From Octopus vulgaris (taxonomy: Eukaryota): 64,000 bases of DNA. Below are positions 25,881-53,315 of the stretch, one piece after another. The notes beneath the pieces were generated by a model that made no database searches, had not been told where the DNA came from, and saw only the letters and a program-made list of their open reading frames with translations. The DNA lies in NCBI GenBank assembly GCA_951406725.2, contig OX597818.1:56854001-56918000 (forward strand), in the 5' to 3' direction. The position numbers were made by a program, and so were the translations under genes. Each line of letters begins with the position of its first letter. Position 1 is the first letter of the stretch.

Positions 25881-27115
25881 ATCATCATCATCATCATCAT
25901 CATCGTTTAGCGTCCGCTTTCCCTGCTAGCATGGGTTGGACGGTTCAACTGGGTTCTGGGAAGCCAGAAGGCTGCGCCAGGCCCAGTCTCATCTGGCAAT
26001 GTTTCTACGACTGGATGCCCTTCCTAACGCCAACAACTCCGTGAGTGTAGTAGGTGCTTTTTAGTGCCAGACGAGGCTGGCAAATGGTCACGATCGGACG
26101 GTGCTTTTTACGTGCCACCGGTACAGGTGCCAGGCGAGACTGGCAAACGGCCACGATCGGATGGTGCTTTTTACGTGCCACCGGTACAGGTGCCAGGCGA
26201 GGCTGGCAACGGCCACGATCGGATGGTGCTTTTTATGTGCCACCGGTACAGGTGCCAGGCGAGGCTGGCAACGGCCACGATCGGATGGTGCTTTTTATGT
26301 GCCACCGGTACAGGTGCCAGGCGAGGCTGGCAACGGCCACGATTGGATGGTGCTTTTTACGTGCCACCGGTACAGGTGCCAGGCGAGGCTGGCAACGGCC
26401 ACGATCGGACGGTGCTTTTTATGTGCCACCGGTACAGGTGCCAGGCGAGGCTGGCAACGGCCACGATCGGATGGTGCTTTTTACGTGCCACCGGTACAGG
26501 TGCCAGGCGAGGCTGGCAACGGCCACGATCGGATGGTGCTTTTTACATGCCACCAGTACAGGTGCCAGGCGAGACTGGCAAACGGCCACAATCGGATGGT
26601 GCTTTTTACGTGCCACCGGTACAGGTGCCAGGTGAAGCTGGCAACGGCCACGATCGGATGGTGCTTTTTACGTGCCACCGGTACAGGTGCCAGGCGAGGC
26701 TGGCAAACGGCCACGATCGGATGGTGCTTTTTACGTGCCACCGGTACAGGTGCCAGGCGAGGCTGGCAACGGCCACGATCGGATGGTGCTTTTTACATGC
26801 CACCAGTACAGGTGCCAGGCGAGACTGGCAACGGCCACGATCGGATGGTGCTTTTTACGTGCCACCGGTACAGGTGCCAGGCGAGGCTGGCAACGGCCAC
26901 GATCGGATGGTGCTTTTTACGTGCCACCAGTACAGGTGCCAGGCGAGACTGGCAAACGCCCACAATCGGATGGTGCTTTTTACGTGCCACCGATACAGGT
27001 GCCAGGCGAGGCTGGCAACGGCCACGATCGGATGGTGCTTTTTACGTGCCACCGGTACAGGTGCCAGGCGAGGCTGGCAACGGCCACGATCGGATGGTGC
27101 TTTTTACGTGCCACT
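25881..27115 (-). mobile_element. RTE LINE 3' end with an expanded internal 62-bp minisatellite
   Basis: (cat)n tail and RTE terminal block at 25881-26050, followed by the tandem array. Confidence 0.85.
26052..27115. repeat. Tandem array of ~17 x 62-63-bp units
   Basis: Unit gatggtgctttttacgtgccaccggtacaggtgccaggcgaggctggcaacggccacgatcg; period 62 (e.g. 26401 and 26463). Confidence 0.95.
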
Positions 27116-31996: not shown

Positions 31997-34900
31997 TAAC
32001 TTAGAATAACTTAGAATAAGTTATTCTTGACTAGCTATAATGAATCTAGCAAAAGAACTGGAAAAAAACATCCGAGCTATCACCCACCGCCATCCACCAC
32101 TATTACCCCACTACACATGCCATTAAAAAGCAATCAAATAAACAAATCACCAAAACAATTAAAACCATCCACTCTCGCCTCAACATTTCTGCTTAATGCC
32201 CAAGGCATCAGCCCTTCCACCAATACACAAAAATGGAAGATAAGATTCCTGGAGGACTGGGTCGAGGCCCATCCAAACCACATCCCTTTCTTCGTCCTCA
32301 CTGAAACCCATCTTAGTGACCTCCACTTGGAAGCCGAGGTGAAAGTTAAAAATTTCAAAACCATTCGTGCTGATCGTGTTGGCAGAAGAAAGGGTGGGAC
32401 TGCCATTTATGTCCATGATTCATTCTCAACAGAAGCCATGAACATATTTTCGAATGGATACTGCGAAGCAGTCGCTGTATTCAGTCAAACCAACAACTTA
32501 ACAGTAGTTGGGCTCTACAGACCACCCCAAACGCCCCTACCATGCTTCAAGGAATGCCTCAACAGCATAAAGTGTTTCATTCAGCAGTGTCAACCTGACA
32601 ACATTTTAATGATGGGAGATTTCAACCTTCCCGGGGTTGACTGGTCTACAAACAGTCTGTCGCCAGGTTCTTCTCTCTCAACCCCTGACAGGGAGGCAGT
32701 GGAATCGCTTCTTGACTTCATGGATGACTTCTTCTTGTCCCAACTGGTACTCGAACCAACGAGATATCACAAAAACGTCTTAGACTTAATTTTCAGCAAT
32801 CACACTGATACTATCCACAATATTGCAGTGGAGAAAACCCTACTCTCCGACCATGACATGGTTCTCTGTGATCTGAGATTTCACTGGCCAAAATGCAAAA
32901 CAAATGTCATCCCTCCTGTTCATCCATTTGACACTATGGATTTCCACAATGCAAACTGGGAAGCGATCAATAATGATCTTGCACAAGTCGATTGGTCCTT
33001 CACGCACACATACACACCCACTAACATCAAAAAGTCCTGGCAGTCACTTGTAGACACCATCACGAACATATGTGCAAGACACACCCCATTAAGATCTGCA
33101 AACAAATCTAAGTGTCGAATCCCTAGAAATAGAAAATCTCTCATAAGGAAAATTAAAAGAATCAACAAAAAGATCAACATGCTGAAATACTGTCAACAGC
33201 AACACACCAACCTGACTGCCATCTCGTCGCTAGAGATTAAAAAACATAAACTCCAAAACAACATGATGTCTATCATCAATAGTCAGCGAAGAGCTGAAGA
33301 GGCCTGGGCCATTGAGAAGATCAAACTCAATCCCAAAGTGTTCTTTTCATTTGCAAAAAAACACAGAGTCACTGGTTCTACTGTTGGCCCTCTGATTGAT
33401 GAAAATGGTATTCTTCAAGACAATGCCAAAACCATGGGAGAAATATTGCAGAAACAATATTGCTCTGTTTTCAGCAATCCTGATATGACTGATCTGGGCT
33501 GTATCAGTGATGTTACTCCCCAATACACTTTATCGGACATAACATTTGGCGCTCCTGATGTCTTAGCAGCAATAAAGGAAATGAAGCATAATTCAGCAGT
33601 AGGTCCCGATAGGTTCCCTGCTTGTGTCTTGAAGATGTGTCAAAACCAACTTGCACCCCCTCTAGCCAATCTGTGGCGGAACTCATTGGATGCTGGATAT
33701 ATACCAGAAGACCTTCTATCCCAGTCTGTTGTCCCAGTTTTCAAAAAAGGAAACAAATCGCTTGCCGTGAATTACCGTCCAATCTCACTCACCTCTCATA
33801 TCATCAAGGTATTTGAGAGGGTGCTGAGATCGCGTATGACTCACTTCCTTGAGAGTCATAATATGCTGAACCCCAACCAGCATGGATTCCGTAATGGGAG
33901 AGATTGCCTGACGCAGCTACTGCATCATTTTGATGACATTTTGAGAGCCTTGGGAGAGGGTTCCAACACTGATGTCATCTACCTTGATTTCAGCAAGGCC
34001 TTTGACAGGGTTGATCATAAGATCCTTCTGAGAAAGCTGTCCAATATTGGTGTCACTGGAAAGCTGCTGCAATGGATCAAGTGCTTCCTCTCTAACAGAA
34101 CCCAACATGTTGTAGTCGAAGGAGTCAAATCCAGCCCAGCCAAAGTCAGCAGTGGTGTCCCACAAGGCACTGTGTTGGGCCCACTTCTCTTCATCATCTA
34201 CATAAATGATATTACTGACACCATCAAACACAGCAACATCAGAACCTTCGCTGATGATTCCAAGCTCCAGAAGGTCATCAATGGCGTGGATGACCGAATA
34301 AACCTTCAGTCAGACCTACTAGCTGTTGTCCAATGGGCGGAAAAGAATAACATGTTGCTAAATGAAGACAAATTCGAACTGATCCACTTTGGAAGGGAGG
34401 ACGCTCTGAAACTCCCATACTCTCTTCCTTCTGGAGAAATTCTCATGGCATCCAACAACATCAGAGACCTGGGAGTAACAGTGGACAACAACATAAGCTG
34501 GGCTACACATATAAGCAGCAAAGTTGACATGGCCCGCAGAATGTGTTCCTGGATTCTCAGAACCTTCCAGTCGAGAGATTCCCACGCTATTATCCTTCTC
34601 TTCTCCACTTTTGCCCGACCCCACCTTGAATACTGCTGTCCACTGTGGTCTCCCTACACAAAACAAAATATTATGAGAATTGAAGCTCCCCAAAGGTCAA
34701 TCACAAAAAAGATAGATGGCATGTCAGACCTTGACTACTGGGGTAGACTAGAGAAGCTGAAATTGTATTCACTCCAACGACGCCGTGAACGCTACATTAT
34801 CTGTATGATGTGGAAAATATTCCATCAGCACTGTCCGAATGATGTTGGCATCACCTTCAAAATGCATCCAAGGCTTGGACCACGTGCCATCCGTCCACAA

Positions 34901-35222
34901 CAAAAATCTAAATCGCATCACATAACGACAATACGGCACAACTATTTCACCTCAATTGGACCCGCTCTCTTCAACATTACACCAGGACACGTCAAAAAAG
35001 AAACTGACCACACAAAATTCAAGAAGTCTTTGGACAAATTCCTTCAAACAGTACCGGACAAACCATCCACACCCGGATATGTCTCCGCAAACAATAACTC
35101 TCTGCTCGAATGGGCCTTGGTGCCCAAATCCTGAACTGAAAGACTTCGCCAGGTGGTGCTATTAAGTTAGACATGGCCTGGGCCAATACTGGCCAAAAAC
35201 CTTTCTAAGTTATTCTAAGTTA
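31997..35222 (+). mobile_element. CR1-group non-LTR retrotransposon (ORF2 only) with 20-bp terminal inverted repeats
   Basis: Intact APE-RT ORF, short 3' UTR and a (TTCTAAGTTA)2 tail. The 5' end is the exact reverse complement of the tail. (TA)n on both sides. Confidence 0.93.
32027..35134 (+). CDS. LINE ORF2: apurinic-type endonuclease plus reverse transcriptase (1035 aa; first ATG at 32117)
   Basis: APE motifs LNAQG, LTETHL, GGTAIYV, YRPP, GDFN, LDL, SDH. RT motifs NYRPISLTS, QHGFR, YLDFSKAFD, GVPQGTVLGP, FADD, DLGV. CR1-type RPHLEYC..WSP and SLQRRR. No stops or frameshifts. Confidence 0.95.
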   Translation: MTSYNESSKRTGKKHPSYHPPPSTTITPLHMPLKSNQINKSPKQLKPSTLASTFLLNAQGISPSTNTQKWKIRFLEDWVEAHPNHIPFFVLTETHLSDLHLEAEVKVKNFKTIRADRVGRRKGGTAIYVHDSFSTEAMNIFSNGYCEAVAVFSQTNNLTVVGLYRPPQTPLPCFKECLNSIKCFIQQCQPDNILMMGDFNLPGVDWSTNSLSPGSSLSTPDREAVESLLDFMDDFFLSQLVLEPTRYHKNVLDLIFSNHTDTIHNIAVEKTLLSDHDMVLCDLRFHWPKCKTNVIPPVHPFDTMDFHNANWEAINNDLAQVDWSFTHTYTPTNIKKSWQSLVDTITNICARHTPLRSANKSKCRIPRNRKSLIRKIKRINKKINMLKYCQQQHTNLTAISSLEIKKHKLQNNMMSIINSQRRAEEAWAIEKIKLNPKVFFSFAKKHRVTGSTVGPLIDENGILQDNAKTMGEILQKQYCSVFSNPDMTDLGCISDVTPQYTLSDITFGAPDVLAAIKEMKHNSAVGPDRFPACVLKMCQNQLAPPLANLWRNSLDAGYIPEDLLSQSVVPVFKKGNKSLAVNYRPISLTSHIIKVFERVLRSRMTHFLESHNMLNPNQHGFRNGRDCLTQLLHHFDDILRALGEGSNTDVIYLDFSKAFDRVDHKILLRKLSNIGVTGKLLQWIKCFLSNRTQHVVVEGVKSSPAKVSSGVPQGTVLGPLLFIIYINDITDTIKHSNIRTFADDSKLQKVINGVDDRINLQSDLLAVVQWAEKNNMLLNEDKFELIHFGREDALKLPYSLPSGEILMASNNIRDLGVTVDNNISWATHISSKVDMARRMCSWILRTFQSRDSHAIILLFSTFARPHLEYCCPLWSPYTKQNIMRIEAPQRSITKKIDGMSDLDYWGRLEKLKLYSLQRRRERYIICMMWKIFHQHCPNDVGITFKMHPRLGPRAIRPQQKSKSHHITTIRHNYFTSIGPALFNITPGHVKKETDHTKFKKSLDKFLQTVPDKPSTPGYVSANNNSLLEWALVPKS

Positions 35223-49907: not shown

Positions 49908-50080
49908 GCATATATATACATATATATATATATACATATATATGTATATGTGTATATATATATGTATATATATATGTATATATATATATGTATATATATA
50001 TATGTATATATGTATATATATATGTATATACACATACACATAACAGATACACACACACATACACACTTGTACATACATGA
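49440..50080. repeat. (TA)n compound microsatellite
   Basis: Direct inspection. Confidence 0.95.
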
Positions 50081-50624
50081 ATATGTATTTGTTTTACAAG
50101 ATACTTGATGCAACATTGTGTGTTGAAACAGATATTATTACAAGTGGGGATGGCCATATTTTTTCAATTAAACACTTGCACTAGCGTGTGTGTGTGCTTA
50201 ATTGGCGAAACATGACCATCCCCAAGTATAACAGTATATATCATCATTATCATCATCATCATCATTTAGCATATGTTGTTCATGCTGGCATGGGTTGGAT
50301 GGTAAGTAGCTTGCTTCCCAACCACATGGTTCAGGGTTCAGTCCCACTGCGTGGCACCTTGGGCAAGTGTCCTATTTTATAGCCTTAGGCCGAACAAAGT
50401 CTTGTGAGTGGATTTTGTAGACAGAAACTGAAGGAAGCTCATCATAACTGATGGAATGCCACGATAAAATGATGATTTAGTGACTGGACGATTTAGTGTC
50501 TATTTCCAGCATATAGGCATGGTCCCCTCTGTGCCATTAATCACAATTGTATTTTATTCTATTACAAATTTCTGGGTATCAATTTACCTAAATAGGTAAA
50601 TTATATGCTGGCCACTCTCTCTCT

Positions 50625-51023
50625 CTTTTACTCTTTTACTTGTTTCAGTGATTTGACAGTGGCCATGCTGGAGCACCGCCTTTAGTCGAGCAAATCGACC
50701 CCAGGACTTATTCTTTGTAAGCCTAGTATTTATTCTATCGGTCTCTTTTGCTGAACCGCTAAGTTACAGGGACGTAAACACACCAGCATCGGTTGTCAAG
50801 CAATGTTGGGGGAACAAACACAGACACACAAACATATACACACACATATATATATATACATATATACGACGGGCTTCTTTCAGTTTCCGTCTACCAAATC
50901 CACTCACAAGGCTTTGGTCGGCTCGAGGCTATAGTAGAAGACACTTGCCCAAGGTGCCACACAGTGGGACTGAATCCGGAACCATGTGGTTGGTTAGCAA
51001 GCTGCTTACCACACAGCCACTCC
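50625..51023 (-). mobile_element. SINE family A
   Basis: Full-length match. Confidence 0.9.
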
Positions 51024-51080
51024 AACGCCACTGATAAAATTTTTAATGATTTTATCCTTTAATTATATATATATATATTT

Positions 51081-51525
51081 ATAGAATGGTTGTATACTGT
51101 CAATCTGACACGAACGTGACAGTAGGGGTGTACACCACCGCTGTTTAGCCCTAGGAAGCATCGACGCCTCCTGATGGCTTTGACACATTTCTCCTGTGTC
51201 CTTATATACATTTACGAAGGGGAGACAAATACCCCCAGCCGCCAGGGCTGCATCTAGGGACATGTGTTTCAGGATGATTGTCCTTCGTCGGCCTAGACTA
51301 GCAGACACTGGTCAGCTGATGATATTTGCTTCGACTTCGTAATGTATATATCTAAATTTCAGTGAAGTCTATTCACTGATTATCATAATCAGAAATACTA
51401 AATTTCTAAATCTTTCATAGAGACATGTACGGTGGTGGGGCGTTCGTATTAGATTGACAGTATACAACCATTCTATCGCCCCACCACCGTACATGTCTCT
51501 ATGAGAGATTTAGAAATTTAGTATT

Positions 51526-51528
<3 letters not shown>
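51081..51528 (-). mobile_element. Retrozyme/Penelope-like non-coding element: 362-bp monomer plus an inverted junction copy
   Basis: Hammerhead at 51253-51297. 51441-51528 is the reverse complement of the monomer end joined to the monomer start. (TA)n on both sides. Confidence 0.8.
51253..51297 (-). ncRNA. Type-I hammerhead ribozyme motif
   Basis: Minus strand reads TCTAGG|CCGACGA|AGGA-caatca-TCCT|GAAA|C-ACAT-GTC^|CCTAGA, with perfect stems I and II. Confidence 0.8.
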
Positions 51529-51570
<42 letters not shown>

Positions 51571-51874
51571 CTTTTATTCTTTTATTTGTTTCAATCATTT
51601 GACTGTGGTCATGCTGGAGCACTGCTTTTACAAAGAATAAGTCCTGGGGGTGATTTGTTCGAATAAAGCCCTTTAAGGTGGTGCTCCAGCATGGCTGCAG
51701 TCAAATGACTGAAACAAGTAAAGGAATTAAAGAATAAAAAATACAAGAATAAAAGAATTGCACAATCGTTTCAAGGTAGAACACAACTCTGTTTTGTGAC
51801 ACAGATTCAAATTCTTGAGTTCATATTTACTGCAGAGCTGTTTGTAGTTCAGCAGTAAATTTAATAGAAATGTT

Positions 51875-52347
51875 ACATTTCTAAATCTCTCAGAGAGAGT
51901 GTTGCAGTAACAGCATGATAAAGTGATGGCTTGTTGCTAACTTAATGTGGCAGTCCCAGGAAAGGGAAGAATGTTACTGTTATTTAGCCCTAAGAAACAT
52001 CGTTTCTAGTTGGCTGCACGACACAAGCGTTCTGTGTTCTTAAGTTTTCAAACAGGGGAGAAAAGCACCTCCACCTAACAAAGCCAGCATTCAGAGACAA
52101 GTTTCAGGGTTATTGCTCTTCATTAGTCTGGGGTAGTTTGGCCTTGCTAGATGTCACTGCTAATCCGTTGTTGAAAACTTATAGGATTTCAAGTGATATA
52201 CATTCTCTGATCTTCAAAAATATCTCAGAGTGAGTTATGCAGTAACAGCACAACAAAGTGATGGCTTGTTGCCATTTTAATGTGAGTCCCAGGAAAGGGA
52301 AGAATGTTACTGTTATTTAGTCCCAAGAAACACCGTTTTTAGTTGGC
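51875..52347 (-). mobile_element. Retrozyme-like tandem repeat (~335-bp period, ~1.4 units) with a hammerhead at 52092-52130
   Basis: 51888-52014 is repeated at 52223-52347. Minus strand reads CAGA|CTAATGA|AGAG-caataa-CCCT|GAAA|C-TT-GTC^|TCTG. Homologous to the 51081 element. Confidence 0.7.
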
Positions 52348-52696
52348 AATGCTCCAAAACCCACTGCGATAGGTGAAAATCCGTCAAGTAGAAACAATAC
52401 TGTACTGTGTATTTTTGTTTTTCTACTTTTGCAACTTGTATATATTTATTATATTATAAATGCAAAACAACAACACATACTCGCCTCCTGATTTTTGTTT
52501 TCCATACAGTATGTGCGATTCTTTGTTTCCTCATCAACGGTACACTACATATTTTCTTTTAATATATTTTAATTAATGTGTTATACAGTGCAGTACTGTA
52601 CTGTGTTTTTATTTATTAATTTTTAGGTGTGAACATGCTTATTTTACCACAAAAATAATTAAAATCTAAATAAATATAGATACCTATCGACTGCAG

Positions 52697-52841
52697 GTAT
52701 AGGAGTGGCAGTGTGGTAAGTAACTTGCTTACCAACCACGTTGTTCCGTGTTTAGTCCCACTACGTGGCACCTTGGGCAAGTGTCTTCTACTATAGTCTG
52801 ATCAAAGCCTTGTGAGTGGATTTGGTAGATGGAAGCCCGTC

Positions 52842-52889
<48 letters not shown>

Positions 52890-53315
52890 ACCATGATAGA
52901 TCAGTAGCCACTACACTCATTTTTTTCTCTCCTTGTTTTTTCTGTGTCCCTTCCTGTAGAAGAGTGTAGGCTCGAAACGTAAAAGACTTTTTCTATTCCT
53001 GAGCGTTAAACTAATACTTCAGTTTGTTTTCTACACCACCTGTCTTCGTCTTTTGTTTTTTTCGTGAATTCTCTCCATATATATATATATATATATGTAT
53101 ATCTTTTTGTGTCTATGTTTGCCCTCCCAACATAGCTTGGCAACTGATGTTGGTGTGATTACGTCCCCGTAACTTAGCAGTTCAGCAAAAGACACTGATA
53201 GAATAAGTACTAAGCTTACAAAGAATAAGTCCTAGGGTCGATTTGCTCTCCTAAAGGCGGTGCTCCAGCATGGCTGCAGTCAAATGACTGAAACAAATAA
53301 AAGAATAAAAGAATA
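52697..53315 (+). mobile_element. SINE family A with a Penelope-like insert (52890-53076; hammerhead-like motif 52951-52984)
   Basis: CTGTAGA-A-GAGT-gtag-GCTC-GAAA-C-GTA-aaag, inside the SINE (TA)n. Confidence 0.75.

Follow-up and report, generated by a model that had tools for sequence, protein, structure and literature searches.

We read the element at positions 51081-51531 of the window (the whole 64-kb stretch of DNA that was analysed) as a two-armed, inverted copy of a 362-nt non-coding hammerhead repeat, likely inserted by the borrowed reverse transcriptase (RT)/endonuclease of a Penelope-like element (PLE) that copied an RNA of more than one unit; we give this reading a probability of about 0.85. 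The features of the locus, with q1-362 for the positions of the unit, are as follows.

51064..51078, no strand: left (TA)n target remnant, seen in the sequence
51081..51442, minus strand: arm 1, the 362-nt unit (q1-362), starting at the fixed terminus T1 (51081)
51200..51352, minus strand: long hairpin that prolongs hammerhead stem I, from folding prediction
51253..51297, minus strand: type-I hammerhead motif with a U4C core, cut predicted between 51259 and 51258
51310..51326, minus strand: insertion site of LINE ORF1 modules in other copies (q230-246), empty in the window copy
51388..51442, minus strand: block B, an internal copy of the tail (55 nt), lying between both start sites, with short predicted hairpins
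51441..51442, no strand: inversion junction, where the arms overlap by 2 bases (CG)
51441..51531, plus strand: arm 2, inverted, from the fixed terminus T2 (q308, 51531) to q36, across the 55-nt tail and the B|A junction
51530..51567, no strand: right (TA)n target remnant, seen in the sequence

Arm 1 runs from T1 toward the 5' end of the RNA, whose sense is the minus strand, for the length of one unit. Positions 51441-51531 are the reverse complement of q308-362 fused to q1-36; over 88 bases they differ from arm 1 at 3. The sequence bears out the preliminary description of a 362-nt unit at 51081-51442 followed by an inverted stretch; the inverted join stood, and the right end, placed there at 51528, is really at 51531. 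No ORF of 150 aa or more overlaps the 362-nt unit, as had been stated, and TA runs lie on both flanks, in agreement with the proposed insertion in (TA)n. The unit is non-coding with a GC content of 0.442, and its predicted folding as a whole is far better than that of shuffles (z = -7.95).

The genome searched comprised 2.8 Gb in 227 contigs. A 25-mer of the q1 end had 1,395 exact matches in it and the control had none, which establishes the dispersed genomic family that the preliminary description had supposed; the 362-nt unit as a query gave 2,477 candidate matches genome-wide. We examined the 30 best matches and the loci of nearly all of the first 100 listed 25-mer places. Each locus of the position-ordered sample was picked by an exact match to q1-25 among these first 100 of the 1,395 places, and 68 loci remained once seven composite or split loci and four duplicates had been dropped; one duplicate was also dropped from the best matches. 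The median difference from the column majority was 4.7% (141 segments).

Inverted arms were found at 42 of the 68 position-ordered loci. Thirty-seven of these paired T1 (q1) with T2 (q308), which are 55 nt apart, in support of the Penelope-like insertion footprint that had been suggested; the other five had one end damaged, and the same terminus twice was seen in none of the 42. The 26 single-arm loci started at T1 in 11 cases and at T2 in 15. Eleven extra loci picked for long arms mostly obeyed the T1+T2 rule, with an exception in a LINE-bearing locus (L243) that had T1 at both ends. Many copies lie in (TA)n, and non-TA sites show target duplications of roughly 9-14 bp. The inversion points are scattered among copies, and the arms join head to head. 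Two separate insertions, L037 and L050, share the same inversion point (q92 in both arms, which overlap by 20 nt); this may be a hot spot or a junction that was inherited.

In inverted Penelope insertions, the tail is described as an extension on one end (PMC3846280, PMC8557442), and for an Anolis (lizard) PLE in vitro the available text of PMC11167929 gives it as the stretch between two internal reverse-transcription start sites. The T1/T2 pattern is the footprint of such a Penelope 'tail'. Two fixed termini, an optional tail, an inverted arm at the 5' side and an AT-rich or microsatellite target with a short duplication were all found, as for a non-autonomous PLE, and the 362-nt family probably works like one; the layout of an autonomous PLE, an RT and GIY-YIG ORF between repeats, was not found in it. 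If the repeat were the terminal repeat (pLTR) of an autonomous PLE and its copies truncated ends, the ends, target and inversion would be as in PLEs, and retrozyme-pLTR homology is reported for Xenopus in the available part of 10.64898/2026.07.22.740005. We regard this as very improbable, because every long arm is followed by a further unit or by a LINE ORF1 module and never by a PLE ORF, and exits at q230 genome-wide (n=15) lead into a module in 14 cases and into unrelated sequence in one.

Block B is thus the Penelope tail, and the B|A junction is ordinary internal sequence. The view that 51081 and 51442 are the start and end of a monomer whose junction was specially preserved is not supported: q1 is a fixed terminus, and q362 is merely where the window copy inverted, none of 105 sampled arms ending at 355-369. 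The same count rules out the equation of one exact monomer with one turn of a circle, and the exact one-unit length of the window arm is chance. Among the best matches, 3 of 45 arms end at 355-369, but the query selects for them. A circle made by the ribozyme would join at the cut site, q178/179, and not at B|A.

The hammerhead repeat has relatives. Seven families, 333-365 nt long where the length was measured, are colinear beyond the hammerhead (z 3.5-11.9). The 333-nt sister family is present in the window as a decayed 1.4-unit tandem (51860-52350), and its other copies have two termini and a tail of ~55 nt, like the 362-nt family. The 359-nt sister family (L246-L275), whose similarity to the 362-nt family outside the hammerhead is z 3.5, is young, with a canonical core, 37 exact motif matches and arms of up to ~6 units, and pairs two termini in 8 of 8 inverted loci. 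At L144:2280-3000, a tandem array of a 352-nt sister family adjoins a 362-nt-family insertion across a TA run.

A Neptune-like PLE (L216-L220, e.g. G000:C17:6329500-6338500) is very young. Its 1312-aa ORFs are intact and have an N-terminal insert rich in Asn, and by eye a minimal motif resembling a hammerhead can be made out ~110 nt upstream of the ORF. In all 12 loci where both ends of this PLE are visible, it pairs the two, which lie 56-60 nt apart. In a chimeric insertion, a PLE arm that ends at the PLE downstream site is joined, with no spacer, to an inverted arm of the 359-nt family that ends at its upstream site, so that this single PLE-retrozyme chimera obeys the rule of one upstream and one downstream start. 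It occurs in four segmental duplicates, one of which has a different outer end:

L187, L191-L193: C2:59.07 Mb; C28:6.93, 8.29, 8.36 Mb

Because the four copies share their flanks, they represent one event, and independent events were ruled out. The hammerhead of L187 was considered as the PLE's own and rejected; it belongs to the 359-nt sister family. The best match between the 362-nt unit and the young Neptune-like PLE, the one full-length PLE family compared, had an E value of 0.14, and the inner flanks of 37 single-arm copies gave no match to seven PLE protein stretches. The 362-nt family is older, and these searches found no partner of its own.

On the minus strand, 51297-51253 forms a type-I hammerhead with stem I paired 6/6, stem II paired 4/4 and GUC at 51261-51259. 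A relaxed scan, of the kind that the preliminary description had proposed, recovered it as the single match in the 64-kb window, and a similar relaxed scan of 1.2 Mb of reversed sequence gave none; the Rfam hammerhead profile, proposed along with it, detected no hammerhead at E<=10 in 50000-53000. The stems and the GUC site were as first described, whereas two points had been missed or misplaced: core position 4 is C (CCGA) instead of U, and the palindrome that would pair helix III in a dimer measures 8 nt in the majority of copies. U4C is present in 76 of 79 family segments, the hammerhead columns being otherwise nearly invariant, and the canonical U within the family pattern had only 30 genome-wide matches, about one third of them in sister families. 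In the window copy, a single base of the helix III palindrome has decayed (A in 5 of 79 segments).

Stem II was paired in 98.9% of cells across 22 natural motifs, with 18 double-sided changes, and none of 500 shuffles scored as high, in a control that takes the motifs as independent and ignores kinship. All six pairs of stem I vary in step across 10 representatives. The stems are thus kept across copies, as had been expected, by near-invariant columns within the family and covariation across sister families. U4C is reported to have considerably lower activity in vitro and to be tolerated in a viroid (PMC3088659), and a short palindromic helix III to make cleavage dimer-dependent (PMC4209133); by analogy, this suggests that the ribozyme of the 362-nt family would cut slowly and depend on dimers. 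At L082:546-1327, an unrelated motif resembling a hammerhead occurs three times; its helix III is longer.

We propose that a source copy would yield multimeric RNA, by linear read-through or as a circle, and that, to judge from the target duplications and TA flanks, staggered nicks would be made ~9-14 bp apart in AT-rich DNA. From the observed footprint we infer that one nicked strand would prime at q308 (downstream) and the other at q1 (upstream), both copying toward the 5' end of the RNA; the arms would therefore overlap and differ by the 55-nt tail. Scattered arm stops and head-to-head joining are visible in the copies, as is the passage of arms across the hammerhead. Among the inner ends of the 105 sampled arms, 11 exceed one unit from q1; 30 arms pass beyond the predicted cut at q178/179, and three end at 172-185. 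Because arms extend beyond one unit and do not pile up at the cut, the templates were longer than one unit, as the preliminary description had claimed, and a cleaved linear monomer is ruled out as the main template. Read-through of the hammerhead would fit the slow, dimer-dependent U4C ribozyme that is predicted. Head-to-tail arms of 2.2-3.4 units occur in L019, L064 and L155; they are rare, as are long tandem arrays in the 362-nt family, 3.4 units being the longest seen, and the window copy is not among them.

The two arms of one insertion disagree at 29 of 698 diagnostic sites, and successive passes within one arm, in several subfamilies, at 14 of 296; between insertions the figure is 37%. 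Seven misaligned or mixed loci were left out of these counts and are kept in the column-conservation tally (3.7%, 3.8% and 7.0% differences). The shared subfamily variants fit either repeated copying of a single unit or homogenisation of an array. The first of these would be expected if a ribozyme-made monomeric circle underwent rolling-circle reverse transcription, which would also give arms of more than one unit and 5' ends without a pile-up at the cut site; such circles are described for coral, mussel and axolotl retrozymes in the available text of PMC7229834. A monomer circle would, however, give identical passes. Units that are not neighbours carry the same linked variants in arms of the young 359-nt sister family, as A-B-B-A-B in the arm at C3:51.54 Mb and in an irregular pattern in the arm at C1:20.00 Mb, and the 362-nt-family locus L155 shows X-Y-Y-X at two sites. 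Repeated unit differences of this kind argue against a single monomer circle for at least some insertions, and the reported drop of in vitro activity with U4C also stands against it; we consider such a circle an unlikely template. A circle of three units, a linear array or unequal exchange at a later time could each produce the recurring unit pattern, and a circular template of either size, monomer or oligomer, is possible at somewhat less than even odds.

It is nearly an even question whether the templates were only linear, uncleaved read-through RNAs from small arrays, with an almost inert hammerhead and no circles. The fixed U4C and the heterogeneous units within arms would agree with this; furthermore, the Anolis PLE used unprocessed RNA in vitro, insertion there needing no hammerhead cleavage (PMC11167929), and 8 of 9 Xenopus dimers were uncleaved according to the available part of 10.64898/2026.07.22.740005. 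Against it, arms of several nearly homogeneous units occur in each subfamily, and linear copying by itself cannot make such arms longer; moreover, the hammerhead is conserved, with nearly invariant columns and covarying stems. The listing of public sequencing runs gave no RNA run as carrying the family. Contigs of five runs that we guessed to be RNA hold family variants, and one of them (X1) crosses the hammerhead into the next unit, as does X18, whose kind is unspecified. Given that the X1 join recurs in X18, and that a circle and a tandem copy give identical joins, the join is silent on circles and on expression.

Some copies of the repeat carry 1.7-kb modules at q230-246, which encode a ~470-aa CCHC ORF1-like protein and have a 14-17 nt duplication on both sides. 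Sixteen loci with modules at least 85% identical to the query were examined, out of a set with five further such matches, and in 15 the module lies at q230-246. In the remaining one it adjoins an APE+RT ORF2 and is found upstream of a sister hammerhead, at a distance of 32 nt, and a more distant module array lies 37 nt upstream of the hammerhead of a third family. In three families, stacks of ORF1-only modules stand at one site, 32-37 nt upstream of the hammerhead (L088, L151, L152, L224-L234, L154); more distant module relatives (L145-L150, L153) have poly(A) tails and other targets. One of these loci, L088, was considered as an autonomous PLE and rejected, its ORFs being CCHC ORF1-like with no RT. 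The domains of the LINE lineage are APE and RVT_1 in ORF2 and a CCHC/RRM-like ORF1, a layout that makes it a candidate member of the Tx1 clade.

Composites of unit and module lie dispersed over the unit tree, whose well-supported branches force eight changes or more (bootstrap not settled), and 3' module junctions (n=10) do not outnumber 5' junctions (n=14); therefore, the modules are likely to be repeated site-specific LINE insertions. Tx1 elements are described as inserting site-specifically in other transposons (Tx1 in Tx1D, Tx1-Mar; PMC4494074). The modules could instead be an integral part of one modular, Terminon-like element, given that they alternate with units in L088 as a ~4.2-kb repeat and that some composites appear to have been re-copied (L243, L231). 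This is improbable in view of the duplication on both sides, the scatter of composites with its forced changes, the lack of an excess of 3' over 5' junctions although arms are usually short, and the relatives with poly(A) tails and an APE+RT ORF2.

As in metazoan non-LTR retrozymes, to the extent described in the available text of PMC7229834 and 10.64898/2026.07.22.740005, the unit is non-coding, ~360 nt long and of 44% GC, with one type-I hammerhead per unit, head-to-tail copies and co-existing PLEs. One type-I hammerhead per unit, a non-coding length within 150-1000 nt, a GC content below about 45% and at least two head-to-tail hammerheads were all found, and at the level of sequence the 362-nt family qualifies as a metazoan non-LTR retrozyme. 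It differs in being mostly dispersed, short and inverted rather than in long arrays, and in having two fixed ends and a fixed U4C core. The available text of the same two sources holds no description of fixed ends, tails or inverted arms in retrozymes.

With the tail and inverted pLTR of PLEs, as described in the available parts of PMC11167929, PMC3846280 and PMC8557442, the family shares two internal start sites downstream of a hammerhead, an optional tail at one end, AT-rich or (TA)n targets and short target duplications. In contrast to PLEs, it has no ORF, its tail is 55 nt long versus 30-40 nt, both start sites are in RNA that codes for no protein, at 177 and 232 nt beyond the cut site, and its unit gave no sequence match to a partner. 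The modules resemble Tx1-clade LINEs, as far as these are described in PMC4494074, in combining an APE-type LINE with ORF1-only derivatives at one site of a non-autonomous element, in tandem stacks; the target here, however, is a hammerhead retroelement, which in three families is hit upstream of the core, at a distance of 32-37 nt. A term search of the main text of a recent octopus repeat annotation (PMC13282606) gave no mention of hammerheads or retrozymes; its supplements, like those of the other papers, may hold the family. Our literature search, outside which lay supplements, repeat libraries and most subscription papers, found no paper on fixed ends of retrozymes, an octopus retrozyme family or LINEs that target retrozymes.

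PLE mobilisation of animal retrozymes has so far been argued from co-occurrence and pLTR similarity. The 362-nt family now contributes a footprint of insertion in agreement with the biochemistry of PLEs, and the sister family a single direct chimera in which the PLE is young and intact. Together they offer a candidate enzyme and a small, defined substrate, whose two start sites lie 55 nt from each other, for studying how inverted PLE insertions arise and whether their templates are circles. We put forward a wider model as a tentative one that is rather unlikely to hold in full: an asymmetric pair of PLE enzymes would hold two RNAs, one strand always starting upstream and the other downstream, even for different elements; retrozymes would be carried along as circles of several units or as multimers that a damped U4C hammerhead leaves uncleaved and long; and a LINE lineage would target them, landing just upstream of the ribozyme, which makes a three-layer parasite system.

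Two other features of the window were recorded. A LINE with an intact 1039-aa endonuclease and reverse transcriptase ORF lies at 32015-35134 on the minus strand, flanked by long TA-rich tracts, and a 62-nt minisatellite of 17 copies, 95% matched, occupies 26064-27114, with related units of 64-67 nt elsewhere in the window.
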